Virus record (IMG/VR): IMGVR_UViG_3300010939_000064
Span: 1-64,000 of that record
Length of the DNA: 64,000 nt
Direction: 5' to 3' (one strand)
From: a virus
A model generated the notes under the pieces. That model worked only from the letters and a program-made list of their open reading frames with translations, ran no database searches and was not told the DNA's origin. This document shows positions 1 to 64,000 of this stretch, piece by piece (the first letter of the stretch is position 1; each line of letters starts with the position of its first letter). The position numbers and the translations under genes are program-made.

Positions 1-87
1 AGTAAATGTGGTAATAATATGGTTATTATAAAACTTCCGGGTGGTAATACTTTTGTGTGTAAAAAATGTATGAGTAATTTAAAATGA
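1..87 (+). CDS. 3' end of a small Zn-ribbon protein gene (truncated by window edge)
   Basis: Frame 1 is open from nt 1 to TGA 85-87. It translates as ..KCGNNMVIIKLPGGNTFVCKKCMSNLK with two CxxC pairs. The stop overlaps the next start (ATGA). Confidence 0.4.
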   Translation, partial: SKCGNNMVIIKLPGGNTFVCKKCMSNLK

Positions 88-665
88 GTAACATTTCTAT
101 GTACGACGGAAATGATAAATTAATTTTATCTAATGAAGCGAAAGATAAAATACTGAATAAAATTATAACTCCTAGAAATAAGAATGAATGTTGGGAATCT
201 AATGGAACACACGATAAAAATGGTTATTCTATGTGTGGTCTTGGTTATGGTTTTAGTAGTCAACTACATAGAATTATTTATGAATTAATAAAAGGTAAAA
301 TAGATGACAAATTAGAATTAGATCATCTTTGTAAGAACACTGGGTGTGTTAATCCAGATCATTTAGAAGCTGTAACACATCGTGAAAATGTTTTAAGAGG
401 AAATCATTCTATAATGAATAAGGGATATTGTAGAAAAGGTCATATATTAAATAAAGACAATATTTATGTTGTACCTAGTACTGGACATATACGTTGTAGA
501 AAATGTATTGGAATGTATCACCCTAAAATAGTTGATAAACACAATAGAGATAAAACGCGTTGTAAAAGAGGGCATGAATTTAATGAAAAGAATACTTATA
601 TTAGAAAAAATAATTCTAGACAATGCAAGAAATGTGTAAAATTAAGAAATCAAGGTTTGATATAG
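84..665 (+). CDS. HNH homing endonuclease, paralog 1 of 5 (HNH_3-like core plus two C-terminal Cys4 modules)
   Basis: Core motif LELDHLCKNTGCVNPDHLEAVTHRENVLRG. Two repeats of C-x2-GH..N.Y....G...C-x2-C follow. Clear paralogs lie at 54974, 58107, 59564 and 61398. Confidence 0.8.
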   Translation: MSNISMYDGNDKLILSNEAKDKILNKIITPRNKNECWESNGTHDKNGYSMCGLGYGFSSQLHRIIYELIKGKIDDKLELDHLCKNTGCVNPDHLEAVTHRENVLRGNHSIMNKGYCRKGHILNKDNIYVVPSTGHIRCRKCIGMYHPKIVDKHNRDKTRCKRGHEFNEKNTYIRKNNSRQCKKCVKLRNQGLI

Positions 666-10325: not shown

Positions 10326-11902
10326 ATATTGTTGGATTAAGTGCAATTACGGCTGAGTATATTCAGCATTGTGGATCTGATAATATGGTTGTTAAAGCAG
10401 CTAGAGTTTCTATGAGCAAAGATGAAGTTAATATTAAACCAGATGAGACTCAATTGATTAAGGATTTAGTTGCCAAAAAACATCTTACTCCGTTTGAGAT
10501 GTGTGATATAACGTTTCTTGTTTCATGCCCTATATTTGTTGTTAGGCAATTTCATAGGCATAGGACTTTTTGTGTAAGTGGAGATACTGAAGTATATACA
10601 GATCCACCATCTAGTGTTAGAACTGATAGGCGTAGATTACATAAGATACCAATAGAGAGATTATATTATAGTCTTTTTAATGATATTACAAAGATTCATT
10701 TGAGAACGTATGATGTTAAACGTAATACTTTTGATTGGACACATATAAAGAAGGTATTTCAAAATGGCATGAAACATATGTATAGAATAACTTTGGCTGA
10801 TGGAAAAACTATTACTTGTACTAAAGAACATAGATTTTTAGGTAAAAATGGTTTTGAAACGCTTGAAGATACTATAGGTTTGATACATATAAACAAAAGC
10901 GTTGGTATGACTAAAAGAGGTATTATAAAAGTCAATGGTCAGTATCTTAAAGGTCAGATTCCTTGGAATAAAGGAGTTAAAGGATATAAAATCAATAACA
11001 CAATTTCTGATGAACAAAGAGAGGCTATACGTAACGCAAGATCTGGAAAGAAATCTAATTTCTGGAAAGGTGGAGTATCTTCTGAAAGACAGTTAATTGC
11101 AACATGGACTACAAATCAGACTACAGCAGTTCATAAGAAGTTTAATTATATATGTCAGAAGTGTGGAAAGAAAGGCGGTAAATTACATGCACATCATATA
11201 AAGTCAGTTGTAGAATTTCCTAAACTTGCTAAAGATTTTAATAATTTAGAATCTATATGCGTTTCGTGTCATAAAATAGAACATAAACAAAATGGAGATG
11301 CATTAAAATGGAGAAATTCTCATAATGGGAATCTATTGATTCCGAGAGAGGTTGAAATAATTAAGATAGAATATGTTGGAATAAAAGAATCATATGACTT
11401 AGAAGTTGAACATGAGGATCACAATTATATTGCGAATGGTATAATTGTTCACAATAGTTATAATGAATGGAGCGCGACTTATTCTACTGTTGGGGAAAGT
11501 TTTTATGTACCTAAAGAGATTAGACTTGAAGATAGTAATGTTAAAGCGCAATCAACATTTAGTGATGAAAAAAGTAAAGAACTATTAGGTCTTATTGAAT
11601 ATGAATGTTACAAATCTACTGAAGGTTATTGTAAATTAATTTCTAATGGAGTTTCTTTAGAAATGGCGAGGATGATTTTACCTCAGAATATGATGACTAA
11701 GTTTTATGCTAAAGGTAATATTAGAAATTGGGTTCAATATTGCGCAATAAGATGTAATAAGCGCGTATTGTATGAACATCAGGTACTAGCTAAACAGATA
11801 TTTAAAGAAATACTTAAGATGTTTCCTATTTCTGTTTGGGCGCTTGCTAAAGATATGTTTGATGAAGAGACTTTTAAGTCTTTAAATTTAAAACGAAAAT
11901 GA
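10322..11902 (+). CDS. thyX: FAD-dependent thymidylate synthase ThyX, interrupted by an intein
   Basis: N-extein ends ..VVRQFHRHRTF and C-extein starts SYNEWSATYS... Joined they give the ThyX signature RHRxxSxNxxSxxY. The extein total of 231 aa is typical for ThyX. Confidence 0.85.
   Translation: MNIVGLSAITAEYIQHCGSDNMVVKAARVSMSKDEVNIKPDETQLIKDLVAKKHLTPFEMCDITFLVSCPIFVVRQFHRHRTFCVSGDTEVYTDPPSSVRTDRRRLHKIPIERLYYSLFNDITKIHLRTYDVKRNTFDWTHIKKVFQNGMKHMYRITLADGKTITCTKEHRFLGKNGFETLEDTIGLIHINKSVGMTKRGIIKVNGQYLKGQIPWNKGVKGYKINNTISDEQREAIRNARSGKKSNFWKGGVSSERQLIATWTTNQTTAVHKKFNYICQKCGKKGGKLHAHHIKSVVEFPKLAKDFNNLESICVSCHKIEHKQNGDALKWRNSHNGNLLIPREVEIIKIEYVGIKESYDLEVEHEDHNYIANGIIVHNSYNEWSATYSTVGESFYVPKEIRLEDSNVKAQSTFSDEKSKELLGLIEYECYKSTEGYCKLISNGVSLEMARMILPQNMMTKFYAKGNIRNWVQYCAIRCNKRVLYEHQVLAKQIFKEILKMFPISVWALAKDMFDEETFKSLNLKRK
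10571..11455 (+). mobile_element. intein (295 aa) with HNH-type endonuclease domain
   Basis: It starts at Cys84 (CVSGDTEVYT, block A), contains TCTKEHRFL (block B) and ends GIIVHN followed by Ser (+1). The internal HNH motif is HAHHIKSV..NNLESICVSCHKIEH. Coordinates were checked codon by codon (TGT 10571-10573, AAT 11453-11455). Confidence 0.8.
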
Positions 11903-14910: not shown

Positions 14911-15312
14911 TTGAGTAAAAGTAATAAGTATAATGGAATGTTTAAGCATTTAAAAATAGAAAAAGCAGGTGGAATGGCATGGGGTATTACAGGTAAAAAT
15001 ACTCTTTGGTGGTTTATAGCTGATAGTAGAGATCCGAGAATTTTTATGCAGAATCTTCTACCGGGATTTCATGAGTTATTGCATGCACTTTACCAGCAGG
15101 AAGTTGGAACTGAACATGTTAAGTATCTTACTTCAGATCCGCCTGAAGTTAGAAGAGTAGGTCAAACTGGACCTATGGCAACAGTTGTGGTTCATGATGA
15201 ATGGTACGGATTTAAAACATGGATTAGAATATGGTTTAAACATGGTGGTTGGCTTCCAATGAGAATGCCTTATATACCAATTAAAGTAGGAAAGAAAAGG
15301 TATAATATATGA
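14911..15312 (+). CDS. hypothetical protein with HExxH motif (possible zincin-like metallopeptidase)
   Basis: Contains PGFHELLHALY. TTG start. The 3' end is duplicated downstream of the following HNH gene. Confidence 0.4.
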   Translation: MSKSNKYNGMFKHLKIEKAGGMAWGITGKNTLWWFIADSRDPRIFMQNLLPGFHELLHALYQQEVGTEHVKYLTSDPPEVRRVGQTGPMATVVVHDEWYGFKTWIRIWFKHGGWLPMRMPYIPIKVGKKRYNI

Positions 15313-15845
15313 AAAACATTTGTATAATAGAAGAATGTAATGATTTTGTGCATGGAAATAGACTTTGTGGAAAACATTATAGAAGAGAATATTTATATGG
15401 AAGTCCACATGATATTATAGTTAAACAACATATTAGAGAAATATGTTCAATGCCTAATTGTGATAAAAAATATGCTGCAAAAGGTTTATGTCTTCAACAT
15501 TACAATGCTTTACCATATCACAAAGAAAGAAGAAGACGTAATGCATTAAAATATATGAAAAATAATAGAGATAAAGCAATTGAAGCAACAAGTAGATATT
15601 TAGAAAAGATGAGTAAATGTTTTAACATAAGTGGAAACATGTATAAGATATTAATAGATTGTTGGTCCAGAATAATTAAATATAGAGATAAGAAATGTGT
15701 TATTTGTGGTTCTGTAAATACATTAAATGCACATCATATATTTTATAAAAAAGATTATCCTATGTTAAGTTTAAATGAAAATAACGGAATAACATTATGT
15801 AGAAAATGTCATAGAGAATTACATGGAGGACATTGGAATGAATAA
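15309..15845 (+). CDS. HNH endonuclease (free-standing, different family from the five HNH_3 paralogs)
   Basis: C-terminal NAHHIFYKKDYPMLSLNENNGITLCRKCHRELH. Two N-terminal C..C......G.C..HY modules. Confidence 0.8.
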   Translation: MKNICIIEECNDFVHGNRLCGKHYRREYLYGSPHDIIVKQHIREICSMPNCDKKYAAKGLCLQHYNALPYHKERRRRNALKYMKNNRDKAIEATSRYLEKMSKCFNISGNMYKILIDCWSRIIKYRDKKCVICGSVNTLNAHHIFYKKDYPMLSLNENNGITLCRKCHRELHGGHWNE

Positions 15846-15912
15846 TATATGGGTTCCTACTAGGATGCCTTATATTCCTGTTAAAATGGCTAAAGTTGCT
15901 TATAACTTATAA
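15838..15912 (+). pseudogene. diverged duplicate of the 3' end of gene 14911..15312
   Basis: MNNIWVPTRMPYIPVKMAKVAYNL* compared with ..GGWLPMRMPYIPIKVGKKRYNI* at the end of 14911..15312. Confidence 0.55.
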
Positions 15913-43498: not shown

Positions 43499-43609
43499 AT
43501 TCTATTAGGCCCGCTTAGTATATGGGCCCTATATAGGCCTATTAGGTTCCTTGATATTCTTATTATTTCTAATCGATTATTAGAATCATTATATAAGAAA
43601 ACTATAGGG

Positions 43610-43625
43610 TTCCTAGGTTTTTTGA
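43610..43625 (+). repeat. CTAGG element copy 1
   Basis: TTCCTAGGTTTTTTGA. Confidence 0.5.
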
Positions 43626-43726
43626 CTATCAGTGAGATGTCATATATATAAGTGTTCACGTATATACTGGCTTACGTGACCTCGTGTCATCTCTGTGCTC
43701 ATCTAGAACAACTAACCTCTCCAACT

Positions 43727-45065: not shown

Positions 45066-45075
45066 TTTTTTTTTT
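45066..45075 (+). terminator. oligo-T terminator (T10)
   Basis: T10 begins directly after stop codon 45063-45065. Confidence 0.5.
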
Positions 45076-45116
45076 CGAATCGAAATCTAGAATAGTTATA
45101 TTGGATAATTGTAGAA

Positions 45117-45132
45117 TTCCTAGGTTTTTTGA
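45117..45132 (+). repeat. CTAGG element copy 2
   Basis: TTCCTAGGTTTTTTGA, identical to copy 1. Confidence 0.5.
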
Positions 45133-45145
45133 ATAAAGGTGATGA

Positions 45146-45153
45146 TTTATATA
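45146..45153 (+). promoter_or_regulatory. TATA box
   Basis: TTTATATA starts exactly 30 nt upstream of ATG 45176. The segment between box and start resembles the one at 44064-44096 (..CGTAA.GG..TTGATGAA). Confidence 0.5.
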
Positions 45154-49693: not shown

Positions 49694-49704
49694 TTTTTTT
49701 TTTT
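49694..49704. terminator. T11 tract in convergent gap
   Basis: T11 lies between the stop at 49678 (+) and the stop of the minus-strand gene at 49703. Confidence 0.45.
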
Positions 49705-50278
49705 AAGATTTAAAAGAATTATTTGTAAGTTCATTGTTTGTTGATCTTTTGATCCAGTTGCAATTTGCACATAATACTTGTAAATCACGAATAGCTATTT
49801 CTGGATTAGCAAAGTAAAAAGTTAACATTTTATCATAATCACCAAATTCTCTTACATCTTCTTTACAACTTCCATATATATGATCTAACTGAAGAGTGTA
49901 ATAATTGGTAATTCCACAATGTTTACAACTAGATCCACCGAGTAAATTGTACATTCTTATATTTCTATCCATATGTTGTTTAGATTTATTCTTACGCATT
50001 TTAATTTGTTTTTCAGTAAGGTCTTTAATCTTATTTCTTAAACATTCACCATTGATAGTACGTTTAATCCAGTTACAGTTAACACATAATACTTGCAATA
50101 TCTGTTTAGCTTCCTTAGGATGCTTAGTATAATATTTGTGCATATAAAAGCTAGTGCGTTGGAATTTATCAATAACTTCTTTAGTACCACCACTATCTAT
50201 ATGATCAAATTGTAATGCTCTAACATCAGTAAAATTACAATTGATACATTGTTTACCTCCAAGAATATTAAATAACAT
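49703..50278 (-). CDS. tandem double HNH-like nuclease (two DH / CxxCN domains); the 5' end probably extends upstream
   Basis: Domain 1: KQCINCNF..LQFDHIDSGG...LQVLCVNCNWIKR. Domain 2: SSCKHCGI..LQLDHIYG....LQVLCANCNWIKR. Homologous coding sequence continues upstream of ATG 50278. Confidence 0.6.
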   Translation of the reverse strand: MLFNILGGKQCINCNFTDVRALQFDHIDSGGTKEVIDKFQRTSFYMHKYYTKHPKEAKQILQVLCVNCNWIKRTINGECLRNKIKDLTEKQIKMRKNKSKQHMDRNIRMYNLLGGSSCKHCGITNYYTLQLDHIYGSCKEDVREFGDYDKMLTFYFANPEIAIRDLQVLCANCNWIKRSTNNELTNNSFKS

Positions 50279-53156: not shown

Positions 53157-54125
53157 ATGGATAAAAATCAAGCTTTGCAAAATATTGCAAAGAAAGGGAA
53201 AACAGAGGTCGCTGTTCTTGAAACTGAGTTAACAGAAATTATTTCGCAAATGCCGGATTCACCTGACAGAGAACGCCTAGCAATGAGAGAGTTAAACAAC
53301 AGGTATAGCGGTCCACCAGACAAAACAGTTAAGTTTGATGTGTGTATAGTTGGATTGTACAATCTCACTGACTTTAACAGAAAAGCTACAAAGACAGCAA
53401 TGGACGCATATAAGGCTGATAAAGAGGGAACTCTTGAAAGAGGCATGGTACAACTTATTGATGGTGAACCAGTTGCCATTGATTTAAAGGAAACCTTTGG
53501 TGATAATATTAAGAACAATAACTATGGTAAACCATTAGGACATAGTTATAATAGAAATGTTCTTGTTTTAGCCAAAGAAGATGGTACACTTGAATGGAAA
53601 ATGTCTACGATAGCATTGAGAGGCGATTTTTCATCAACAAGTTTGCCTGAAATGCATAAAGTACTAAAGTGTAATCTATTAGGAGAAATAGTAAAAGAAC
53701 TTAAAACAGCAAAAAGTACTAAGTTTACTGTTTCAGATGAAGCTGTAGATTTTAATACGGTATTAACTGATATAGCAAAAGATCATATTGTTATGTTAGG
53801 TGACTGTTTAACTGAAGCAAAAAAACACGACAAGAAAGAAAAAGGTTTCTATAATAGATTTGTTATTACATCTGGTGAATGTAGATTTATGAATGATCCA
53901 AAGAAAGAAGGTGGAAACTTCAATGGAACATTTGATGACTTTACAACAGATAAGATGATAACAGCATTTGTTGATCCAGCATTAGGTAAACCTGATATTG
54001 GATCTGAATATACATTGATTGCGCAGACATCTGTTAAGAAGGAACAAAAAAAGAATGATGCGGGAGAATACGTTGACACTGATGAGGATGCACTCATCAT
54101 GAATGTTATGGGATATTATTCCTAA
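53157..54125 (+). CDS. hypothetical replication-module protein (possible ssDNA-binding protein by position)
   Basis: 322 aa, first gene of the replication cluster. AAGGAGA upstream and a T10 terminator downstream. Confidence 0.3.
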   Translation: MDKNQALQNIAKKGKTEVAVLETELTEIISQMPDSPDRERLAMRELNNRYSGPPDKTVKFDVCIVGLYNLTDFNRKATKTAMDAYKADKEGTLERGMVQLIDGEPVAIDLKETFGDNIKNNNYGKPLGHSYNRNVLVLAKEDGTLEWKMSTIALRGDFSSTSLPEMHKVLKCNLLGEIVKELKTAKSTKFTVSDEAVDFNTVLTDIAKDHIVMLGDCLTEAKKHDKKEKGFYNRFVITSGECRFMNDPKKEGGNFNGTFDDFTTDKMITAFVDPALGKPDIGSEYTLIAQTSVKKEQKKNDAGEYVDTDEDALIMNVMGYYS

Positions 54126-54131
54126 CATTCC

Positions 54132-54141
54132 TTTTTTTTTT
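54132..54141 (+). terminator. oligo-T tract (T10)
   Basis: CCTAACATTCC followed by T10 right after stop 54125. Confidence 0.45.
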
Positions 54142-54149
54142 AGAAAAAC

Positions 54150-54977
54150 ATGTCAGCTAATATTGAGACGACGCAAAGTACATCAGAAAAGTATGATATA
54201 GATACTTTATTTGAAAATGCGCACGCACAACAAGAAAAGAATCCATATATAAGTTGTATATTTTGGGGACCGCCAGAATCTGGTAAAACGTATACTGCGT
54301 TATCGTTTCCTGGACCGATCCATTATGTTGATTTAGATGGTGGATTAGATTTAAATCTAAAATACTATAAAGATAAAGATATTCAACGCATTAGGTGCAT
54401 TAGTTTGGATGACGATAAAGAGAATCTTGCAGATCCAAAAGATTATGATGGATTCAAGGTTGATCCAATTAATACATTAAGGAATTTTGATGTTGCGTGT
54501 ACAGTACTTCAACAGAAAAAAGGTGGTACAGTTGTTGTCGATACAATGACAGCGTATAATGAGTGGCTTAAAGCATTGATGACTGCCAGAATTCCTAAAC
54601 ATATAAACAAAGAAGGACAAGAATATGTGGACCAATTCGATTGGAAATATGTCAATCAAAAATGGTTATGGTCTTGGGAGAAACTAAAGAATATATCGGC
54701 AAATTTAGTAGTTACCGCAAAATCTAAACCTGTATATCAAGGTAGAGACATTACTGAAAATATTGAAGCAGATTTACGGCCTAATACAGGATTTCAGACT
54801 GCGATTAATGTTGAGTTTACTAAAGATGTTTCACAGGCACAAGATGGGAAAGTAACCACTGTACGAAAAGCTAAATTTAATAAATTTAGAGGTAATAAAC
54901 TTGGATCTACATATAGTATTGAAAATCTTACATATGATAAGATAATGGATATTCTTAAGGCAGAAAAACAAGTATGA
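54150..54977 (+). CDS. RecA-like ATPase (AAA_24 / Sak4-like)
   Basis: Walker A is CIFWGPPESGKTYTAL and Walker B is TVVVDTMTAY. Confidence 0.55.
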   Translation: MSANIETTQSTSEKYDIDTLFENAHAQQEKNPYISCIFWGPPESGKTYTALSFPGPIHYVDLDGGLDLNLKYYKDKDIQRIRCISLDDDKENLADPKDYDGFKVDPINTLRNFDVACTVLQQKKGGTVVVDTMTAYNEWLKALMTARIPKHINKEGQEYVDQFDWKYVNQKWLWSWEKLKNISANLVVTAKSKPVYQGRDITENIEADLRPNTGFQTAINVEFTKDVSQAQDGKVTTVRKAKFNKFRGNKLGSTYSIENLTYDKIMDILKAEKQV

Positions 54978-55558
54978 GTAATATTTTAGATAATTATAAT
55001 AAAGATAATAAATTACTTTTACCTAAGGGTATGTTAAATAATTTTATGGCAAAAATTAACATACCTAAAGATAAAAGTAAATGTTGGATATGGATGGCGT
55101 CGTTAAACAATGGATATGGTACTTTTAGTACATATGGACTTACTGGTAAATTTGTTCATAGAATTATGTATGAACTAATTAAAGGAAGGATTAAAGAATC
55201 TTACACAATAGATCATTTATGTAGTAATAAATTATGTGTAAATCCAGAGCATTTAGAACAAGTAACTCGTGATGAGAATTTATTGAGGGGCAACGGCGAT
55301 TTAACTCACGCTGGATTTTGTTCCAAAGGTCATAAAAGAACATTAGATAATATTTATATTACACCAAGTACTGGTGCAACTAGGTGTCGTAAATGTAAAG
55401 GAATTTATCATCCGGAAAGAAAAGATTTTGTTAATAATAAAGATAAAACTTATTGTAAAAGAGGACATGAGTTTACTAAAGAAAATACTTATTTAAGATC
55501 AAATGGTGGACGACAGTGTAGAACATGTATGAGTTTAAGAAATAAAGGATTAATATGA
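54974..55558 (+). CDS. HNH homing endonuclease, paralog 2 of 5
   Basis: YTIDHLCSNKLCVNPEHLEQVTRDENLLRG plus two C..GH...C..C modules. Confidence 0.8.
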   Translation: MSNILDNYNKDNKLLLPKGMLNNFMAKINIPKDKSKCWIWMASLNNGYGTFSTYGLTGKFVHRIMYELIKGRIKESYTIDHLCSNKLCVNPEHLEQVTRDENLLRGNGDLTHAGFCSKGHKRTLDNIYITPSTGATRCRKCKGIYHPERKDFVNNKDKTYCKRGHEFTKENTYLRSNGGRQCRTCMSLRNKGLI

Positions 55559-58116
55559 TAGATATATATAGAAAAGTACACACAGGAATTAGTTTCTCTA
55601 CTAAAGGAAGACCTATTTTAGATATTTTCTCTAGAGATAAAGATAATAATAGGGGTACTATTAAAATATTAGATTTACCAATATATTTCTACTTAAAAGA
55701 AGATGAGTATATTGAAGAAATAGATAGAAAATCAAGTATTATTGGTGAATATTATGGATATATGAGTTTATATGGAGAAAAACTTAAGAAAGTTAAAGTT
55801 AAAAAAATATCAGATATGCGTAGATTAGGTAAAATATATCATGGTTATGAGTCAGATATTAATTGGAGTAAAAAATGTATGTTAGATTTACAAATTACTG
55901 ATAAGTTTCTTTATCATGAAGGAAAAGCTTATACTCTTGATCCTAGATTTAATGCATTAAAAGATAAACAGATGGAGGTATTGACAGATGATGGATTATC
56001 AATATCTACTACTGTCGAGAGTAATGTGGATAAATTACTTATATCAAAAGCGTTAGAAGAAGAAGGTGATTTACATAATTATAAACCAAAGATTGGAACT
56101 GAACCATTTGAGGTTAGATACGGAATTTTTGATATCGAAGTTGTTGTTAATAAAAGAGAGGATCTTAAAACTTATAATGGTAAAATAGTTTGTGTTGTTA
56201 TTTATGATTCTTATACTAAATTGTATCATAAATTAAAATTAGATCTTAGTGAAAAAGATTTTATTAAGACAGTTTTAAGTAAATTCCGTGAATTAGATTT
56301 TGATATTATAAGTGGATGGAATGTTAAATTTGATATGGGGTGGCTTATAAATAAAGCTGAAGATTATAATTTAGATTTAAGTATTTATTTTCCTGGAGGT
56401 AAAACTTTTATTAGTAAGTATACTGACCATGAAGGTAAATTTAAAGAAAGTTTTTATATTGGTGGACGGGTTCTTCTTGATGGAATGGATTTATATATTA
56501 AGAAAACCGCTACAACTGAAAAGCTTAATTCTTATAATTTAAAGTCTGTTGCTGCTGCTGAAAAGTTACCTGAATGGACAGATTTAGGTGGTCAAGTTAA
56601 AGAAATATGGGAAAATAATCCTAATCTAATTTTAGACTACTGTAAAATAGATGTTGAAAGAACTATGCAAATTATTGAAAAGAAGGATTTACTTGGTGGT
56701 GCCCTTACTATTTGTAAATTTTATGGCTGTGGATTTGAAGATGTTACTGTTAATTCTAAAATTATTGATTGTCTTAGTTTTTTGCTTAAAAAGAATCGTA
56801 TTCTTCCTAATATTATTAGAGGTCGAGAAAAAGCTAAAATTACAGGAGCAAAAGTTCTTGGTACAAAAGCCGGTGTACATAAGAATGTAGGTGTACTTGA
56901 TGCTGCTAGTTTGTATCCAAGTATTATTCAAGGTTTGAATATTTCTCCTGAATGTTTAGTTTATGAAAAGGATTTATCTGAAGATAGGCGTATACATTGT
57001 ATTACTGTGGATTCTTATACTGCTAAACATTATTTGTACAAAAAAGAATATAAAGTAGGATTAATGACTGAAGTTATTCAAGAGATGAGAAAATTAAGGG
57101 AAGAAATTAGATCCAATAGAGCGCAAGCAACTAAAGATAATGATACAGAAAAATTTACTCTTCACAATAATGAAGAAAAAGTAGCTAAAGGAGTTCTTGC
57201 TTCTGTTTATGGTGTTATGGGATTTAATGGATTTAGATTATTTAATGAAGATTGTGCTAATATTATCACTAAAGTTGCACGTGATACTGTTTTAATGACT
57301 GCTGAAAAGTTAGAATCAGATCGTTTTCATGTTATTGCAGGTGATACAGATTCATTATTTGTTCAAATGAATAATGTTAACGATGGATTTATTGCTGCTG
57401 ATATAATAGATAAAATGGCTGTAGACTATATGAAAAAATTAGGTATAAATGAATCTATAATTAAAGTTAATTATGAGAAGTTCTTTAAATGGATTATGTT
57501 TAGTAAAAAAGTTTCTAAAAAAAGAAAAACAAAATTATATAAAGTAGATGAAGGTTCAGCTAAAAAGAGATATATTGGATTTATTAGTCATGTTGAAAGT
57601 GGTCCACGAGAAATGAAGGAAGTTAATGAGTTATATTATAAAGGATTTGAATTACGTAGAAGTGATAGCGCAAAAGTTTTGAAAGATGTTATGCGCAAAT
57701 TTTTTAATCTTATGGAAGACGGTAATTATAAGTTAGCTGTTAAATATTTAAGAGATGTTAAAGATGCATTTCATGGTTATACAATGGATTATGTTTCTAT
57801 GCCTAGATCAGTTAATGTTGAAGACGCTAAGGGTCCATGGGCTGACGGATATAGATACGCGAAGACAGAACTTAAATTTGAATTTGAACCTGAAACTATG
57901 CCTAAACTTATTTATGTTAAAAATCAATTTAAATATCCTAAGACTAAAGTTATCTGTTATCAAGATGGACATGCTATACCACCAGAGTTTAAGATTGATT
58001 ATGATACTATGTTTGATAAGATTATTAAAGCTAAGTTTGAACCTATTCTCGAATCATTAGGAACCTATTGGGATGTATCTATCAATAACCAAGTTGCGTT
58101 AGATCAGTGGTGTTAA
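55555..58116 (+). CDS. polB: family B DNA polymerase
   Basis: Exo I YGIFDIEVV, Exo II ISGWNVKFDMGWL, Exo III YCKIDVERT, motif A VLDAASLYPSII, motif B KGVLASVYGVMG and motif C VIAGDTDSLFV. Confidence 0.9.
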   Translation: MIDIYRKVHTGISFSTKGRPILDIFSRDKDNNRGTIKILDLPIYFYLKEDEYIEEIDRKSSIIGEYYGYMSLYGEKLKKVKVKKISDMRRLGKIYHGYESDINWSKKCMLDLQITDKFLYHEGKAYTLDPRFNALKDKQMEVLTDDGLSISTTVESNVDKLLISKALEEEGDLHNYKPKIGTEPFEVRYGIFDIEVVVNKREDLKTYNGKIVCVVIYDSYTKLYHKLKLDLSEKDFIKTVLSKFRELDFDIISGWNVKFDMGWLINKAEDYNLDLSIYFPGGKTFISKYTDHEGKFKESFYIGGRVLLDGMDLYIKKTATTEKLNSYNLKSVAAAEKLPEWTDLGGQVKEIWENNPNLILDYCKIDVERTMQIIEKKDLLGGALTICKFYGCGFEDVTVNSKIIDCLSFLLKKNRILPNIIRGREKAKITGAKVLGTKAGVHKNVGVLDAASLYPSIIQGLNISPECLVYEKDLSEDRRIHCITVDSYTAKHYLYKKEYKVGLMTEVIQEMRKLREEIRSNRAQATKDNDTEKFTLHNNEEKVAKGVLASVYGVMGFNGFRLFNEDCANIITKVARDTVLMTAEKLESDRFHVIAGDTDSLFVQMNNVNDGFIAADIIDKMAVDYMKKLGINESIIKVNYEKFFKWIMFSKKVSKKRKTKLYKVDEGSAKKRYIGFISHVESGPREMKEVNELYYKGFELRRSDSAKVLKDVMRKFFNLMEDGNYKLAVKYLRDVKDAFHGYTMDYVSMPRSVNVEDAKGPWADGYRYAKTELKFEFEPETMPKLIYVKNQFKYPKTKVICYQDGHAIPPEFKIDYDTMFDKIIKAKFEPILESLGTYWDVSINNQVALDQWC

Positions 58117-58118
58117 TA

Positions 58119-58712
58119 ATGACTAAATATGATAATGTAAATAAATTAGTTTTACCATGTGATGTATTAGATAAATTTATTAAAAAATTAATAATTCCTA
58201 AAGATATAACACAATGTTGGTTGTGGAAAGGAATACATTCGCCAAAAGGATATGCAAGATGGAGTACTTGTTATTCTAAAAGCGCACATGTAAGTAGGAT
58301 AATTTATGAATTAATATTTGAAAGAATAGAAGAAAAATTAGTTATAGATCATTTATGTTGTAATAAAAGTTGTGTAAATCCTAATCATTTAGAAATTGTA
58401 ACAATGGGAGAAAATACAAAAAGAGGTAATACTAAATTGAGACATAATGATTATTGTAAAAATGGGCATAAAAGAACTTTAGATAATATTTATATACGTA
58501 AAAATGGATTTGTGCAATGTCGTAAGTGTTTAGGAATCTATCATCCTGATAGATTAGATAGAAAACCAGGTATTAATCATAATACTTTTAAAACTATATG
58601 TATAAGAGGACATAAATTTGATGAACAAAATACAGGATTTAATAAAGATGGAAGTAGGTACTGTAAATCGTGTAAATCGTTAAGTAATAAAGGAATGTTA
58701 ACAACATTATGA
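58119..58712 (+). CDS. HNH homing endonuclease, paralog 3 of 5
   Basis: LVIDHLCCNKSCVNPNHLEIVTMGENTKRG. The likely start is ATG 58119 (MTKYDNVNKLVLP), as in the paralogs. The track start GTG 58107 lies inside polB. Confidence 0.8.
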   Translation: MTKYDNVNKLVLPCDVLDKFIKKLIIPKDITQCWLWKGIHSPKGYARWSTCYSKSAHVSRIIYELIFERIEEKLVIDHLCCNKSCVNPNHLEIVTMGENTKRGNTKLRHNDYCKNGHKRTLDNIYIRKNGFVQCRKCLGIYHPDRLDRKPGINHNTFKTICIRGHKFDEQNTGFNKDGSRYCKSCKSLSNKGMLTTL

Positions 58713-58750
58713 TGATTAATAACCAAGTGACACTGGATGTATGGGCGTAA
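58712..58750 (+). pseudogene. diverged duplicate of the polB 3' end
   Basis: ATG ATT AAT AAC CAA GTG ACA CTG GAT GTA TGG GCG TAA (MINNQVTLDVWA*) compared with the polB end ..INNQVALDQWC*. Confidence 0.55.
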
Positions 58751-59061
58751 CTAAAGAAGACTATGAGAAAATTACTAAATGGAAAACAACTACTCCTGCG
58801 AAAGTCTTTAGTAGAGGTACTGGACTTGGTACTAGTAAAGCTGCCATTAGAGAAATGGCTCATCAAATTAGGAAAAATAGAATAAAAGAATTGTATATTA
58901 ATGTTTTACGCGGAATGCGAGATAGTTATCTTGCAAAAGGGGATTTTTTTTCTGCAGCATGTAGTGCTCAATTGTTAGCAGCATGGACTATAGAATTTCC
59001 AAAGTCTCAAAGTATTGGTATTGGACAGTTAGACGTGCTTATAAGGAAATATTTTAGATGA
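58741..59061 (+). CDS. hypothetical protein
   Basis: 106-aa ORF. Confidence 0.5.
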   Translation: MGVTKEDYEKITKWKTTTPAKVFSRGTGLGTSKAAIREMAHQIRKNRIKELYINVLRGMRDSYLAKGDFFSAACSAQLLAAWTIEFPKSQSIGIGQLDVLIRKYFR

Positions 59062-59468
59062 TTAATAAGATTTATTTTGATGGTGGAAGTTCACTTCACG
59101 TGATATGTGTTTTTGATGAGAATCGAAATATATCTATTACCGAAGAAATAAATACACCAAGAACAAATAATGAATTAGAGTATCTTGCTTTAGTAAAGGC
59201 TGTTAAGTACGCTAGAAATTATTATCAAAGATTAGATAAAGTTTTATTTTTAGGTGACAGTGAATTAATAATTAAACAAATGATTGGTGAATATAAGGTT
59301 AAACGGATTCATTTAAAAAAATTGTATGATAATGCTATTAGAGAGATGAATATTGTATCATTGAATAATTTTGAATCTCATTTTAAATGGATTCCAAGAA
59401 GCGAGAATTTAGCTGGTATTGTTTTGGAAAAAATGTTAAATAAAATAAAGACCGAAAGAAATGGTTAA
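59058..59468 (+). CDS. ribonuclease H (type 1)
   Basis: IYFDGGS....TNNELEYLALVKAVKYA.....FLGDSELIIKQM......WIPRSENLAG gives the D-E-D layout of RNase HI. Confidence 0.7.
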   Translation: MINKIYFDGGSSLHVICVFDENRNISITEEINTPRTNNELEYLALVKAVKYARNYYQRLDKVLFLGDSELIIKQMIGEYKVKRIHLKKLYDNAIREMNIVSLNNFESHFKWIPRSENLAGIVLEKMLNKIKTERNG

Positions 59469-59571
59469 ATGTTCAGATTGTGATGATACTGGTATTATAG
59501 TTGTTGGTGGATTAAAAACTAGATGCTGGAACTGTTCATCGTTTAAAGGTTGGAATAGAAAAAATGACTGA
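59461..59571 (+). CDS. DnaJ-type CxxCxGxG zinc mini-protein (36 aa)
   Basis: MVKCSDCDDTGIIVVGGLKTRCWNCSSFKGWNRKND. It overlaps both neighbours. Confidence 0.4.
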   Translation: MVKCSDCDDTGIIVVGGLKTRCWNCSSFKGWNRKND

Positions 59572-60010
59572 ATATAATAATAATAATAAAATGATTTTAA
59601 CTGAGAATATGGTAAATAAAATAAGAAATAAAATTATTATTACTCTAAATGGAGATGAATGCTGGGATTGGAAAGGATCTTATAGTAAATCAGGATATGC
59701 AACATTCAATTTAGGATCTGGAATTAGTAATCGTGTTCATAAAATTTTATATGAATTAACTATAGGTAAAGTACCAGAAGGTTTAGAATTAAATCATAAA
59801 TGTTGTAACAGATGGTGTGTTAATGCTGGTCACTTAGAGATAGTTACACATCAAGAGAATCAATTAAAAGGTGGAAGTTTGTTAACTCAAAAAGGATTTT
59901 GTAAAAATGGACATAAAAGAACTATTGAAAATACTTATTTTAAACCTGATAAAACTAGTATTGAATGTAAAGAATGTAATAAAATTAGACAAAAAAATAG
60001 ATATAAATAA
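59564..60010 (+). CDS. HNH homing endonuclease, paralog 4 of 5 (short form with one C-terminal Cys module)
   Basis: LELNHKCCNRWCVNAGHLEIVTHQENQLKG. Confidence 0.75.
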   Translation: MTEYNNNNKMILTENMVNKIRNKIIITLNGDECWDWKGSYSKSGYATFNLGSGISNRVHKILYELTIGKVPEGLELNHKCCNRWCVNAGHLEIVTHQENQLKGGSLLTQKGFCKNGHKRTIENTYFKPDKTSIECKECNKIRQKNRYK

Positions 60011-60019
60011 GTTTAAAGG

Positions 60020-60379
60020 ATGGGGGCATGGAAGATGAATGGAGATATTGGTAGAATCGATCCTGATTTTGATACTATAATTAAAGAATGTATAAAACAA
60101 TTAAAGATTAAATTTCCTAACTACGGAAATACATGGTTAGAGCAAGATGATAAACATTATAAAGAAAGAATTAAAAAAGAGGTTAATGAATATATTGATA
60201 GTATGTCAATAGATTCTGAACGTCGTAAATTATTAAACATAATTAATTTAGCAGCAATGGCTTATCAGACGGCACATGTAAATAGAGCAGATAGACGTAT
60301 ATCAGCTAGATGTCCAAAATGCAGTAAGCCTTTAACATTGCATAACATAAAAGATGGATTTTTTGTATGCCTTGACTGA
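60020..60379 (+). CDS. hypothetical protein (helical N-terminal part, C-terminal Zn-ribbon)
   Basis: ..NTWLEQDDKHYKERIKKEVNEYIDS..LLNIINLAAMAY.. is weakly MazG-like. The C-terminus has ARCPKCSKPL. Confidence 0.3.
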   Translation: MGAWKMNGDIGRIDPDFDTIIKECIKQLKIKFPNYGNTWLEQDDKHYKERIKKEVNEYIDSMSIDSERRKLLNIINLAAMAYQTAHVNRADRRISARCPKCSKPLTLHNIKDGFFVCLD

Positions 60380-60526
60380 TATAGAATCAAATAAAGAAAT
60401 ATGTCCAGACTGTAGTAGTATAATGATTACTGGTGGATATGAATCAAATCTTAAACCAACTGAATTTTATTGTCATTGTGGATATTGTAGAATAGAACAA
60501 GATAAGTTGATAGGAGAATTTAGATA

Positions 60527-60760
60527 TTGAATAAAGTAATTGTAAAGGCAAAAGCTTTTCGTTTTAATTTTGGCAAGACTAGACTGATTTTTAATTTTGG
60601 TTGGTGTAATCTTTCAAAACAGTATAGAATAGATAGAAGTGGATTATTGCCTTATGTCAATGAATCTGAACCTGAAAAAGGTTATGTTGAATTTGCTAGA
60701 TTAGTATTTATGTTTGGTTACTATCAATTAATTGTTACTAAATTAAAAAAGTGGAAATAA
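60527..60760 (+). CDS. hypothetical protein
   Basis: 77-aa ORF with TTG start. Its N-terminus is weakly similar to ORF 63738..63908. Confidence 0.35.
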   Translation: MNKVIVKAKAFRFNFGKTRLIFNFGWCNLSKQYRIDRSGLLPYVNESEPEKGYVEFARLVFMFGYYQLIVTKLKKWK

Positions 60761-60761
60761 A

Positions 60762-61370
60762 ATGACACGTATTATTACTTTTACAGGTGCTCAAGGCACA
60801 GGTAAAACTGCTACTAGAGGAGAACTTGTTAGATGGTTACAGAAACATAAATATTCTGTTATCGATAGATATTCAGGTGTAAAACAAAGTATTGCAAGAG
60901 ATGCTAAACAGTTTGGATTTATTATAAATGAAAAAACTAATTTTGAATCACAGTATTACATTGCTAGTAGATATATTGTTGCAGATATTGAAACGCGAAA
61001 AAATGCTGAACGAAGAAGTGTTGATTTTATAGTTCTAGATAGATCTGTGCTTGATAGTATTCCTTATATTATGGTGGCTACCGCTATTACAATAAGTCAG
61101 AAAGAGGTACTTAAAAACATGTTAATTGATCATTTTGCTTTATTTCCTAGTAGATTACTTTATTGTGAACCGTTAGATTTTGTTACTTGGGATAAAGATA
61201 GATCTACTAATACGAAATTTCAGGATAGTGTTGATGCTGAATTTAGGAATATTCTTATAAAAGCTTCACAATATTCAAATACGTTTATTTTAAAAAGAGG
61301 ATCTATTGAACAACGGTTAAGAGATGTTATTAAGGAACTAGGTATCGAATGTGGAACTATTAGAATTTAA
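60762..61370 (+). CDS. P-loop NTPase, nucleotide/deoxynucleotide kinase-like
   Basis: Walker A is ITFTGAQGTGKTAT. FIVLDRSVLDSIPY resembles the D-R lid region of dNK/AAA_28 kinases. Confidence 0.45.
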   Translation: MTRIITFTGAQGTGKTATRGELVRWLQKHKYSVIDRYSGVKQSIARDAKQFGFIINEKTNFESQYYIASRYIVADIETRKNAERRSVDFIVLDRSVLDSIPYIMVATAITISQKEVLKNMLIDHFALFPSRLLYCEPLDFVTWDKDRSTNTKFQDSVDAEFRNILIKASQYSNTFILKRGSIEQRLRDVIKELGIECGTIRI

Positions 61371-61410
61371 CAAAATTCGTAAGTCATTATTAATGTCATG
61401 GAAAGTGTAA
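61351..61410 (+). pseudogene. diverged duplicate of the 5' end of the Cas4-like nuclease gene
   Basis: VELLEFNKIRKSLLMSWKV* compared with MKELEFNKVRKSLLMSWKVC.. at 61989. The differences are mostly synonymous. Confidence 0.6.
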
Positions 61411-61988
61411 TGCAAAGTTTAAATTATGATAATGAGAATAAATTAATTCTACCTAAATCTACAGTTAAGAGAATTATCAAGAAAATTATAATACCAGAAG
61501 ATATATCGAAATGTTGGGAATGGATCGGCGGTCGCGCACATGAGTATCCGTATATTAGAATAAATAATATAATGAATAAGCCTGTACATAGGATAATGTA
61601 TGAATTAGTGAATGGTAAAATAGAACAGGGATTAGTTATTGATCATGTTTGTAGTAATAAAAATTGTGTAAATCCACAACATTTAGAAGAAGTAACTAAT
61701 CATGAAAATAATCTTAGAGGTAATACTGATTTACAACATGCTGGATATTGTAAAAATGGACATAAGAGAACTCCTGAAAATACGTACATTAGACCAGATG
61801 GACGTGGTACGTATTGTCGTAAATGTGCAGATATATATCATCCAAAAAGGGAAGATTATATTGTAAATAAAGATAAAACACATTGCATTAGAGGACATGA
61901 ATTTACACTAGAAAATACACGTATAAGAAAATATGGTGGAAGACAATGTAAAACGTGTGATATATTACACGCTAAAGGATTAATTTAA
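61410..61988 (+). CDS. HNH homing endonuclease, paralog 5 of 5
   Basis: LVIDHVCSNKNCVNPQHLEEVTNHENNLRG. The likely start is ATG 61410 (MQSLNYDNENKLILP), with TAATG overlap to the fragment stop. The track start is 61398. Confidence 0.8.
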   Translation: MQSLNYDNENKLILPKSTVKRIIKKIIIPEDISKCWEWIGGRAHEYPYIRINNIMNKPVHRIMYELVNGKIEQGLVIDHVCSNKNCVNPQHLEEVTNHENNLRGNTDLQHAGYCKNGHKRTPENTYIRPDGRGTYCRKCADIYHPKREDYIVNKDKTHCIRGHEFTLENTRIRKYGGRQCKTCDILHAKGLI

Positions 61989-62828
61989 ATGAAAGAATTA
62001 GAATTTAATAAAGTAAGAAAGTCGTTGTTGATGAGTTGGAAGGTATGTCCAAGGCAAAGTTGGTATAGTGTTAGAGATCCAGAATATGGGGAATATAATA
62101 AATTTAATTTTAAAGATCCTGCTTTATTATTAGGACAAATTTTTCATAAAGAAATGGATAAGTTTTATTCTGAAATTGATATTAATGATATGGTAAAAAT
62201 GATGAATAATAATGAAGATTCATGGAAAGTATTAGAAGAGTATTTGTTTAGTCAATTTAGTCAAACAACTCATGAAAAATGTCTTAAATATTTTCATTGG
62301 TATGCTGGTATTGAAGCGCAGAGATTTATTGAGTTATATAGTGAATCTAATACTGGTATTGTTCAAAGATTTATTCCATTATATATAGAGAAATTTGTTG
62401 AAATGATAGATGAAAAAAATAATATATATAGGAATGGACATTTTGATAGAATTGATTATATTTCACCAGGGAAACTTAGACTTGCTGAATATAAAACAGG
62501 ACATAGTTATGATGTAGCAAAGTCTTATAAATTAACTAAATTAAGATTGGAATTATATTATTATAAACGTATTATTGAACAACTTCCTGAATTTAAGGAT
62601 TATGAAGTCTATGAATGGATGCTAATTAATCCTACGACTGAAGCAGTATTTACTTCTAAGTTTTCAGTGTTAACTGAACGTGTGTTAGAAGAGTCAATTC
62701 CAAGGTTAGCTGCGGATATAAATAAGAAAGAACCACCTCGTAGAAATTTAAATTTTTATTGTTTTAGATGTAAGTATAAACGTGGATGTTTAATAGATAT
62801 TGCAGAAAATATATTTGATATAATGTAG
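61989..62828 (+). CDS. Cas4/RecB-like PD-(D/E)XK exonuclease with Cys cluster
   Basis: N-terminal CPRQSWY, core GHFDRIDYISPGKLRLAEYKTG (D...E.K) and C-terminal CFRCKYKRGC. Confidence 0.65.
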   Translation: MKELEFNKVRKSLLMSWKVCPRQSWYSVRDPEYGEYNKFNFKDPALLLGQIFHKEMDKFYSEIDINDMVKMMNNNEDSWKVLEEYLFSQFSQTTHEKCLKYFHWYAGIEAQRFIELYSESNTGIVQRFIPLYIEKFVEMIDEKNNIYRNGHFDRIDYISPGKLRLAEYKTGHSYDVAKSYKLTKLRLELYYYKRIIEQLPEFKDYEVYEWMLINPTTEAVFTSKFSVLTERVLEESIPRLAADINKKEPPRRNLNFYCFRCKYKRGCLIDIAENIFDIM

Positions 62829-63745
62829 TGATGAAGTTTGTACATGTTATAGAAAAAAATAATTTTACAGATTTATATAAACAGTTACAATTTGATTTAG
62901 TTCATGAGGGGATTACTATTGAACCAAGAAGAATGTTAACGCGTGAACTTGTTAATGTTAATCTTGTATTGACTGACCCACAAGAGAGATTGCTTTATTC
63001 AAATGTTCGTAAACATAATTATACGTATGCTTCAGCGGAGTTTCTTTGGTATTTATCAGGTACTAATAGGTTAGATTTTATTGAATATTATTTACCTAAA
63101 ATGAGAGAATATTCTGATGATAAGGTAACACTTAATTCTGCGTATGGATATAGAATATTCGGTAATCATGATGATTTTCCGAATCAATGGATTAATGCTA
63201 TACTTAAAATGAAAGATGATCCATCTACTAGACAAGCTGTGATAACAGTTCATTATCAGTATGATATTGATATGCCATCGAAAGATGTGCCGTGTACTAT
63301 GAATCTTCATTTTATGATAAGAGAAAATAGATTAAATTTATTAGTACAAATGCGAAGTAATGATGCATTCATGGGTTTGATTTATGATGTATTTTCGTTT
63401 ACATTATTACAAGAACATTTTTTTAATTGTTTAAAGGTAACTGATCCTGAGATGTTTGCATATTTGAAATTAGGAACTTATATACATAAGTCTGATTCAA
63501 TGCATCTGTATGAAAGGAATTTAGATAACGTTAATCAATTATTAGATGAAAACTCAGCATCAGCTAGGAATATTATTTCTCCCGATATAGGTTTATTTCT
63601 TGATTCTCTTGATTTGCCTTCACTTCAGAGAGATGAGCAAGCATTGAGAAAACATGGTATAAAGATAGAAACACACTTATATAGAGGGATATGTAGATTT
63701 ATGGCTGAAAAGCTTAATAAAATATTGGAGAAGAAAAATGACTAG
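62828..63745 (+). CDS. ThyA-family enzyme with cytosine-type active site: deoxycytidylate 5-hydroxymethyltransferase (T4 gp42-like) or dCMP methylase
   Basis: EFLWYLSGTN, NSAYGYRIF, DDPSTRQAVITV, VPCTMNLHFMIRENRLNLLVQMRSNDAFMGLIYDVFSF and SDSMHLY. The residue aligned with E. coli ThyA Asn177 is Asp. Confidence 0.6.
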   Translation: MMKFVHVIEKNNFTDLYKQLQFDLVHEGITIEPRRMLTRELVNVNLVLTDPQERLLYSNVRKHNYTYASAEFLWYLSGTNRLDFIEYYLPKMREYSDDKVTLNSAYGYRIFGNHDDFPNQWINAILKMKDDPSTRQAVITVHYQYDIDMPSKDVPCTMNLHFMIRENRLNLLVQMRSNDAFMGLIYDVFSFTLLQEHFFNCLKVTDPEMFAYLKLGTYIHKSDSMHLYERNLDNVNQLLDENSASARNIISPDIGLFLDSLDLPSLQRDEQALRKHGIKIETHLYRGICRFMAEKLNKILEKKND

Positions 63746-63908
63746 TTATATTAGTCTTAAAAAAGCGTCGTTTAGAATAGCTATTAATTTTAATAAATAT
63801 CATGCCTTTAGACATTTTAATAAAACAAGATTTTATTTTGAAATATGGCGTAGTGCTAATAGAAATTGGCATATTGAATTGTTTATAATAGGTAAAAGAG
63901 TTTTATAA
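63738..63908 (+). CDS. mini-protein (56 aa)
   Basis: MTSYISLKKASFRIAINFNKYHAFRHFNKTRFYFEIWRSANRNWHIELFIIGKRVL. It overlaps the upstream stop. Confidence 0.35.
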   Translation: MTSYISLKKASFRIAINFNKYHAFRHFNKTRFYFEIWRSANRNWHIELFIIGKRVL

Positions 63909-64000
63909 TGCTTGAATCACATACTTTCTTTAGGAAAATGGTTGATGAACTCGTAGAGTTCTCTGAATATGATCCTGAGCTTGCTGATGGAATAAAGTGG
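63908..64000 (+). CDS. 5' end of a gene truncated by the window end
   Basis: ATG 63908 (TAATG coupling). MLESHTFFRKMVDELVEFSEYDPELADGIKW.. is open to the window edge. Confidence 0.35.
   Translation, partial: MLESHTFFRKMVDELVEFSEYDPELADGIKW

Follow-up and report, generated by a model that had tools for sequence, protein, structure and literature searches.

A putative HNH homing endonuclease gene between two copies of the polB terminus, one of them foreign, in a viral genome

Results

Two versions of the end of polB flank an HNH gene

We analysed a stretch of 64,000 nucleotides (nt) of viral DNA (IMG/VR record IMGVR_UViG_3300010939_000064, positions 1 to 64,000; GC content 31%), called here the window, in which a gene for an HNH endonuclease separates the gene for a family B DNA polymerase (polB) from a conserved gene encoding 106 amino acids (aa). 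The HNH gene is bracketed by two versions of the last codons of polB, and comparison with related viruses that carry no HNH gene at this position indicates that the version fused to polB is foreign, while the version stranded behind the HNH gene is native. We consider it probable that the boundary of polB with the gene that follows was invaded by a free-standing gene for an HNH homing endonuclease, with a foreign substitute tail placed before this gene and the resident tail left behind it. The features of the junction are given below, contigs of related viruses being numbered with L and homologous proteins with P.

55555 to 58116, + strand: family B DNA polymerase gene, intact, 853 aa (Pfam DNA_pol_B 3.6e-34, and DNA_pol_B_exo1; full-length homologues at 47-78% identity)
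58061 to 58116, + strand: tract of foreign (imported) polB tail, of which the last 36 nt are the fused copy (35/56 to L025; peptide as in P0004)
58119 to 58712, + strand: free-standing HNH (His-Me finger) gene, 197 aa, putative homing endonuclease (Pfam HNH_3, PHROG 826)
58715 to 58750, + strand: native polB tail remnant INNQVTLDVWA with its stop codon, detached from polB (29/36 to the polB ends of L025/L026 and of L027)
58741 to 59061, + strand: conserved 106-aa gene with its ATG inside the remnant (85% identical homologue P0162 directly after polB)

The last codons of polB read ATCAATAACCAAGTTGCGTTAGATCAGTGGTGTTAA (58081-58116, the fused copy) and encode INNQVALDQWC followed by the stop, and ATTAATAACCAAGTGACACTGGATGTATGGGCGTAA at 58715-58750 (the downstream copy) encodes INNQVTLDVWA and a stop. 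The two copies are identical at 24 of 36 nucleotides and 8 of 11 residues, and their TAA stops are aligned. The initial annotation of this DNA had given the same coordinates and sequences, and its hand count of eight residues and about two thirds of the nucleotides agrees with our measurement. It had placed the second copy one codon past the stop of the HNH gene; the two are indeed adjacent, but the distance is 2 nt and not a full codon. A repeat search of the window independently returned the pair 58081-58094 and 58715-58728, with a spacing of 634.

When the 36-mer was compared with both strands of the window (128,000 positions), its top non-self match was the other copy, with 24/36 identities, and the runner-up reached 22. 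The binomial probability of at least 24/36 at this base composition is 2.5e-6 per position, and the empirical rate was 1.5e-5 per pair among 10.1 million pairs spaced 560-720 nt, from which about 0.002 such matches are expected for the polB tail over that range of spacings. Gapped local alignment of the HNH flanks, compared with random flanks, gave p = 0.017 at the polB site. The initial annotation had allowed that a similarity of 36 nt might not exceed the background of so AT-rich a genome; as the top match in the window, expected about 0.002 times over the spacing range, it stands above that background.

The polB junction in relatives without the HNH gene

In at least ten related viral contigs, the polB junction has no HNH gene. 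There, polB ends in INNQ(V/A)TLD(T/V)WA and a stop, overlapping the next ATG by 10 nt (L025, L026, L116-L122, L033, L123). The HNH gene is missing between polB and the 106-aa gene in L025-L030, L033, L111 and L116-L123, and present in the window and in L113-L115; no HNH gene of any kind was found on contigs L025-L030, L111 and L116-L123. The gene order of the relatives is AAA_24, polB, a gene of about 105 aa and an RNase H-like gene, with AAA_28, PDDEXK and neighbouring replication genes further on. On 7 contigs the gene for P0162, the homologue of the 106-aa protein, adjoins polB and overlaps it by the same 10 nt, and the arrangement is alike in L033 and L123.

In the alignment of the window with L025, homology breaks off where the HNH gene lies and is found again from 58715 exactly. 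The ATG of the 106-aa gene (58741) stands 10 nt before the remnant TAA, matching the overlap seen in the HNH-less contigs. Since the polB genes of HNH-less relatives end in this version, with the same overlap, the downstream copy is the native polB tail, and the comparative evidence settles the duplication of the polB tail. The remnant is still present because the ATG of the next gene lies inside it. These comparisons support the earlier proposal that an HNH cassette of about 600 nt sits inside a duplicated polB terminus, and they refute the possibility raised with it, namely that the downstream copy belongs to an independent gene in related genomes, where it is the terminus of polB itself.

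Other searches returned distant relatives or none. When 57000-59500 was compared with 50,697 phage records by blastn, no match appeared; tblastn with the C-terminus of polB gave matches only in haloarchaeal tailed viruses (24%), a search with TerL gave 23% matches only, and a search of IMG/VR found polB relatives only at 25%. A family-specific profile of the polB C-terminus had no match in IMG/VR and none in GTDB genomes. The searches of phage records yielded neither a cultured relative nor an assignment to a host. A metagenome scan with general motifs (SLYPSII.., YGDTDS..) yielded mostly distant polBs, and the P0004 contig was not among the matches listed.

Gene content of the polB module varies beyond the HNH genes. 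Relatives of the L025 type have an extra 98-aa gene (L025 8903-9199) between the 106-aa and RNase H-like genes, which is missing from the window (59061/59058).

Origin of the two copies

Compared in register with L025, the window is identical at 167 of 180 positions (93%) over 57881-58060, at only 35 of 56 (62.5%) over 58061-58116, and at 158 of 180 (88%) from 58715 onward. The drop is significant against both flanks (Fisher p = 2.5e-7 for the upstream and 9.5e-5 for the downstream contrast). The remnant matches L025 and L027 at 29/36 positions each, as against 24/36 (L025) and 22/36 (L027) for the fused copy. Five of the seven differences between the remnant and L025 are synonymous in the polB frame, and the remnant thus still looks like DNA that was coding until recently.

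The protein sequences point the same way. The tails of P0002 (INNQVTLDTWA; polB 78% identical) and P0003 (INNQATLDVWA; 72%) are both like the downstream copy, and the tail of the intein-bearing polB P0004 (81%), INNQVALDQWC, is an exact match to the fused copy. The preceding 100 residues of P0004 are closer to P0002 than to the window, and INNQVALDQWC therefore occurs on two different polB backgrounds. By nucleotide and peptide comparison alike, the downstream copy is native and the fused copy foreign. The initial annotation had named the upstream copy as the one that stays fused to polB, which is borne out and can now be refined by these assignments.

The two polB copies also differ by multi-nucleotide synonymous changes (Leu TTA/CTG), which are expected of long separate evolution as coding DNA and not of a recent local duplication. 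The foreign tract starts at 58061, about 20 nt upstream of the duplicated part, and so includes non-duplicated sequence. Its boundary is visible at the DNA level only, over the last 56 nt; in the sliding protein identity of polB to P0002 and P0004, no long mosaic block stood out at the 3' end. The donor-type tract 58061-58116 adjoins the HNH gene, as does the co-conversion tract of a homing gene.

The C-terminal tail of polB

A protein search returned 26 polB homologues at 32-82% identity, whose C-termini share the form [IV]xNQxxL[DE]x[WF]x. Archaeal PolB enzymes carry a C-terminal PCNA-interacting peptide (PIP) box of the form Qxx[ILM]xx[FWY][FWY]. In the alignment of the polB homologues the Q of the tail is invariant, and among 25 tails compared, Leu (rarely Ile or Met) recurs at +3 and Trp, Phe or Tyr at +6; QxxLxxW is kept in both copies in the window. 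Set against the PIP-box consensus, Qxx[ILM]xx[FWY][FWY] (PMC3504372), the final aromatic position is absent from the polB tails. The polB relatives P0004 and P0025 carry inteins of the LAGLIDADG type at the YGDTDS motif, and the polB of the window is without one.

The HNH protein and its paralogues

The HNH gene runs from an ATG at 58119 to a TGA at 58710-58712, starting 2 nt past the polB stop and in a different frame. Its product matches Pfam HNH_3 (6.4e-10, above the gathering score) and zf-His_Me_endon, as well as the HNH endonuclease family PHROG 826 (7.8e-40). Residues H78, N87, H90 and N99 and the Cys ligands are invariant across 40 homologues. Judged by these residues the catalytic motif is intact, and endonuclease activity is predicted for the protein. 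A search of the PDB by sequence gave no match. An AlphaFold2 (AF2) model (predicted local distance difference test, pLDDT, 87) had I-HmuI (1U3E) as its top PDB match in Foldseek (probability 0.97, E 4.6e-3), followed by I-PpoI.

Five HNH_3 paralogues occur in the window (84..665, 54974..55558, 58119..58712, 59564..60010 and 61398/61410..61988). They are 40-56% identical to one another, and the DH..N..H..N core and the Cys ligands are kept in all five. The closest homologues of the 58119 protein found outside this genome are at most 44% identical.

Upstream of its ATG, the HNH frame stays open as far as a GTG at 58107, which precedes the polB stop by 10 nt, an offset equal to that of the ATG of the 106-aa gene from the remnant stop; alignment with the paralogues favours the ATG at 58119 as the true start. 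A 191-aa open reading frame (ORF) at 49703-50278 on the - strand has a weak, sub-threshold HNH match (Pfam E 0.0046) and may be a further, degraded endonuclease gene. The ThyX (Thy1) gene at 10322-11902 on the + strand is interrupted by an HNH-bearing intein (Thy1 3.4e-40, Intein_splicing 5.5e-13, HNH 1.6e-9), which is another class of selfish element in the genome.

Stranded gene ends at other HNH genes of the window

A stranded gene end lies beside four further HNH genes of the window, three of them with a recognisable duplicate, and one more HNH gene is a clean insertion. The features concerned are listed below.

84 to 665, + strand: HNH_3 paralogue in the tail of an ERCC4-like gene (tblastn paralogue match)
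695 to 730, + strand: native ERCC4 tail remnant, LGSLYRDPKYF and a stop, holding the TTG start (696) of a 383-aa gene (aligns with L027)
15309 to 15845, + strand: HNH gene of a different type, with an HH...CRKCH motif (ORF translation)
15850 to 15912, + strand: second copy of the tail of the gene at 14911..15312, WVPTRMPYIPVKMAKVAYNL and a stop (45/75 nt in register, spacing 600, stops aligned)
54974 to 55558, + strand: HNH_3 paralogue, clean insertion between AAA_24 (54150..54977) and polB (Pfam HNH_3 8.6e-14)
59564 to 60010, + strand: HNH_3 paralogue, 148 aa, in the tail of a zinc-ribbon gene (Pfam HNH_3 3.9e-12)
60012 to 60038, + strand: native zinc-ribbon tail remnant, TTTAAAGGATGGGGGCATGGAAGATGA (FKGWGHGR and a stop; 27/27 identical to the HNH-less L119)
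61351 to 61410, + strand: native 5' end of a PDDEXK/Cas4-like gene, VELLEFNKIRKSLLMSWKV and a stop, in mirror image (48-50/57 to the starts in L027/L116)
61410 to 61988, + strand: HNH_3 paralogue 57 nt into the PDDEXK gene, ORF open from 61398 (Pfam HNH_3 1e-14)
61989 to 62045, + strand: substitute, foreign PDDEXK 5' end, MKELEFNKVRKSLLMSWKV, fused to the body 61989..62828 (42-43/57 to relatives)

The PDDEXK site shows the mirror image of the polB site. Here the native 5' end (codons 61351-61407) lies upstream of the HNH gene and overlaps the end of the AAA_28 gene (60762..61370), as it does in relatives, and the gene body is fused to the substitute. The two 5' ends share 40/57 nt and 16/19 aa and differ by codon-family switches at Ser (TCA/AGT) and Arg (CGT/AGA). 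In most of the relatives compared, codons 1 to 19 of PDDEXK are largely conserved. Local alignment of the flanks gave p = 0.00025. The HNH protein at this site is 51% identical to that encoded at 58119, and its gene is absent in L027, L028, L029, L111 and L116. Upstream of it, a GTG at 61351 opens a 19-codon ORF that ends in TAATG on the HNH start.

At the zinc-ribbon site, the 36-aa gene (59461..59571) now ends in FKGWNRKND, and its remnant overlaps the start of the next gene (60020/60035..60379); the HNH gene is absent in L027, L116, L119 and L121. The ERCC4-like gene now ends in KKCMSNLK at 86. In L027 the ERCC4 gene ends in LGSLSRDASNI and directly overlaps the 383-aa gene, and homology between the window and L027 resumes at 694. 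The gene 14911..15312, which precedes the HNH gene of different type, ends in GGWLPMRMPYIPIKVGKKRYNI and a stop, and the stop of its second tail copy overlaps the ATG of the next gene (15912). At the clean insertion (54974), comparison of the junctions with L025 showed that only the ATGA stop/start overlap is repeated.

Wherever comparison was possible, the invaded junctions are overlapping or abutting gene pairs in HNH-less relatives. At polB and PDDEXK, the native end and its substitute are homologous. Inspection of the junctions by eye revealed no common target motif at the five HNH_3 insertion sites.

Assembly support and strain variation

The exact HNH protein encoded at 58119 was found on three contigs from other samples and assemblers, which reproduce the arrangement at 99.9-100% identity, and the arrangement is therefore not an assembly artefact. 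L113 corresponds to window positions 55913-58802 at 100% and crosses the remnant into the 106-aa gene; L114 corresponds to 55913-58722 (99.93%) and L115 to 57949-58722 (100%). L114 and L115 stop at one and the same position, 58722, which is the eighth nucleotide of the remnant; the remnant first differs from L025 at the base that follows. The shared end points (two contigs start at 55913 and two end at 58722) hint at branching of the assembly graph, caused by co-occurring strain variants at the edge of the cassette.

The window begins within the 3' end of the ERCC4-like gene (1-86) and has ThyA at its end (62828-64000); in relatives the ERCC4-like gene follows ThyA, or PDDEXK in L028. The contig is likely to be a complete genome of about 65 kb, either circularly permuted or with terminal redundancy. 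An intergenic repeat (43560-43650 and 45070-45150) matches at 77/140 positions in register, with the exact core TTCCTAGGTTTTTTGA and TATATA-rich flanks. It lies near a switch of gene orientation and GC skew, and may be a repeated promoter or an origin-type element.

Discussion

How the cassette may have entered the junction

Because the ATG of the next gene lies inside the last codons of polB, an insertion at this junction can be tolerated only where polB retains a tail and the gene behind it retains a start. We propose that, in a mixed infection, the endonuclease would cut an HNH-free genome about 36 nt before the polB stop, and that the break would be repaired by copying the polB tail together with the HNH gene from a diverged donor. 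Homologous pairing would take place on the polB side only, and the far side would be rejoined at the break, in a one-sided and partly illegitimate form of homing. Selection would then retain those products in which polB keeps its QxxLxxW tail and the next gene its start. The junction in the window has this form: the substitute tail (58061-58116) is read in frame with polB, and the resident tail (58715-58750), although detached from polB, still provides the region in which the 106-aa gene starts. The left edge of the remnant (58714/58715) would mark the cut site, and the predicted cut (arrow) in the HNH-less junction would be GTTGCA↓ATTAATAA, 36 nt before the polB stop. At the remaining HNH genes, the predicted sites would be TGGAAAGT(G/T)↓TGTCC, ↓TTTAAAGG and TG(T/C)↓CTTGGATC.

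Several observations weigh against this account. The duplicated stretch is short (36 nt), and its significance at the DNA level is modest, p being about 0.002-0.02, which would by itself be suggestive. The substitute tails at ERCC4 and zinc-ribbon are not homologous to the native ones: the ERCC4 substitute is an arbitrary short tail, and that of the zinc-ribbon gene is arbitrary after a shared 12-nt FKGW stretch. Import of a homologous end is thus not universal, and the pattern may partly reflect selection on whichever tail the insertion created. The homologue search found no donor genome with this HNH gene in a different context. As for the polB tail, its resemblance in motif makes it look like a PIP box, and hence like a sliding-clamp-binding peptide; no PCNA gene was found in the window.

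Alternatively, the unit of substitute tail, HNH gene and native remnant may be old, having been formed once and then inherited or moved by two-sided homologous recombination. The remnant would in that case be selected for the start and initiation context of the next gene and would not be a fresh scar of the cut site. We regard this as possible but not likely. The remnant does overlap the ATG of the next gene in every case, the identities among the five HNH_3 paralogues (only 40-56%) speak for old endonuclease lineages, and the cassette, at 99.9-100% identity in four samples, gives no sign of ongoing change. However, the 26 nt of the remnant that precede the ATG are still polB codons, which, with the preponderance of synonymous differences from L025, leaves little time as non-coding DNA; the same holds for the zinc-ribbon remnant with its perfect match to a relative. 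Moreover, no relative at 57-78% polB identity has any of these HNH genes.

The remnants might also be more than passive scars. The polB remnant follows an ATGATG (58709-58714) and could be translated as a mini-ORF of 13 codons, with an ATG that shares bases with the TGA of the HNH gene, and the TAA of the remnant (58748-58750) overlaps the gene starting at 58741. These start codons and overlaps may reflect translational coupling or coincidence. A reading to which we give rather little weight is that the remnants are translated relay ORFs, which pass ribosomes from the HNH gene to the downstream gene through stop/start overlaps and serve as plug-ins for overlapping operons. The chain would then lead from polB (TAA-TA-ATG) to the HNH gene, from the HNH gene (TGA/ATG at 58709) to the mini-ORF, and from the mini-ORF (TAA/ATG at 58741) to the 106-aa gene. 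If this were true, expression of the endonuclease would be tied to that of the replication genes, and the putative clamp-binding tail of the polymerase would be swapped during movement of the cassette.

Duplication in place, by a long target-site duplication or a replication slip, with later divergence of the copies and the fused one perhaps altered to escape cleavage, seems to us very improbable. Direct repeats do flank the insert exactly, with aligned stops, and alleles that carry an endonuclease need a cleavage-resistant target. But the constrained, translated copy should then have stayed closer to relatives, and the opposite was observed at both sites: the untranslated copy is the closer one at polB (29 vs 24/36) and at PDDEXK (48-50 vs 42-43/57). 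The foreign tract begins 20 nt upstream of the repeat, in non-duplicated sequence, the fused peptide is the P0004 allele, the Ser and Arg codon-family switches need many steps, and there are no terminal inverted repeats and no transposase. A transposable element with a target-site duplication was considered separately and rejected: no transposase domain is present, no inverted repeat pairs the ends, and the direct repeats are 36 nt long and 33% diverged.

Chance similarity in an AT-rich genome (GC 31%, 36 nt, local-alignment p 0.017), or an artefact of assembly joining two strain variants, deserves practically no credence, given that the downstream copy is the top non-self match in 128,000 positions, that it agrees in exact position and frame with the polB ends of at least ten HNH-less contigs, that stranded gene ends occur at four other HNH genes, and that three independent contigs carry the arrangement. 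It is hardly conceivable that polB is interrupted by a group I intron or an intein and has its true last exon or extein in the downstream copy; inteins do occur in the polB of P0004 and P0025 and, with an HNH domain, in the ThyX of the window, but the HNH ORF takes up 594 of the 634 inserted nucleotides, so that a ribozyme would not fit, a scan of 54000-63000 against Rfam gave no match at E<=1, the polB stop codon precedes the HNH gene, which has another frame and its own ATG, and the HNH protein has no intein domain.

Our preferred reading, the invasion of the junction by a homing gene, would make this DNA a legible record of how such a gene colonises the overlap of two essential genes, a substitute end being brought in while the old end serves the neighbour. 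Each remnant edge is a testable prediction of a cut site, and there are five such sites in one genome. Chimeric tails and pseudo-tails of this kind will mislead gene callers and polB phylogenies. The swapped tail resembles a conserved clamp-binding peptide, and homing could thereby shuffle an interaction motif between viruses.

Comparison with known systems

The nearest parallel is found in fungal mitochondria, where mobile ORFs form gene hybrids in atp6 of Allomyces macrogynus (Paquin, Laforest & Lang, 1994, as cited in PMC3630166) and in atp6, atp9, cox2 and nad3 of Glomus sp. (Beaudet et al., 2013; PMC3630166). Both there and here, the core of the host gene is followed by an in-frame foreign terminus, an endonuclease ORF and, downstream, the native terminus, and the arrangement is read as endonuclease-mediated import from a diverged donor. 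The same layout is seen at the PDDEXK (in mirror image), zinc-ribbon and 14911..15312 genes of the window. In the Glomus hybrids the native C-terminus is 91-98% identical to relatives and the inserted one 64-81% (PMC3630166); the native end is the closer one here as well, at 81-88% against 61-75%. The mitochondrial ORFs, unlike the genes described here, encode LAGLIDADG or GIY-YIG enzymes, are often in phase with the host gene and reside in an organelle, whereas the HNH_3 gene has its own start and lies in an uncultured tailed virus. Overlapping-gene junctions, a 5'-end mirror case and several sites per genome are further differences. The resemblance is one of element construction and not of enzyme family.

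In the MobA element of T4-like phages, an HNH homing endonuclease gene lies in the gene for the large subunit of topoisomerase, and the HomR segment is 67-81% identical to the parental DNA (bioRxiv 10.1101/2022.08.31.505936). MobA shares with the present case a phage HNH cassette with a recoded homologue of the target (here the copies are 67-70% identical), which adjoins or overlaps the ORF of the endonuclease and moves along with it. In MobA, however, the native 55-75 nt are lost, the host gene is divided so that two proteins are made from it, and a translational bypass of 50 nt has been added; in the window the host genes are unbroken, the native piece is still there, and nothing calls for a bypass. 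The arrangement also resembles the intronless homing of T-even phages (Seg, Mob), in which an endonuclease gene located between or beside conserved genes encodes an enzyme that cuts within a conserved neighbour, and the gene spreads by gene conversion, flanking markers being co-converted. Classical intronless homing leaves no duplicated target, unlike the present case, where a duplicate is seen and the evidence comes from sequence. One-sided illegitimate repair of double-strand breaks, with junctions at microhomologies, has been demonstrated experimentally in T4 (Parker, Belisle & Belfort, 1999, as reviewed in PMC2988022).

At the level of the enzyme, the model suggests a likeness to I-HmuI of the Bacillus phage SPO1 (1U3E), in that an extended DNA-binding region comes after the His-Me finger core in both, at 21% sequence identity and with a template modelling score (TM-score) of only 0.30-0.34. 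I-HmuI is intron-encoded and nicks one strand, and the C-terminal half of the 58119 protein consists of two Cys/His zinc-ribbon-like repeats. The layout itself is known from fungal mitochondria; its description here extends it to tailed viruses and to HNH enzymes, and complements the HomR of T4 MobA.

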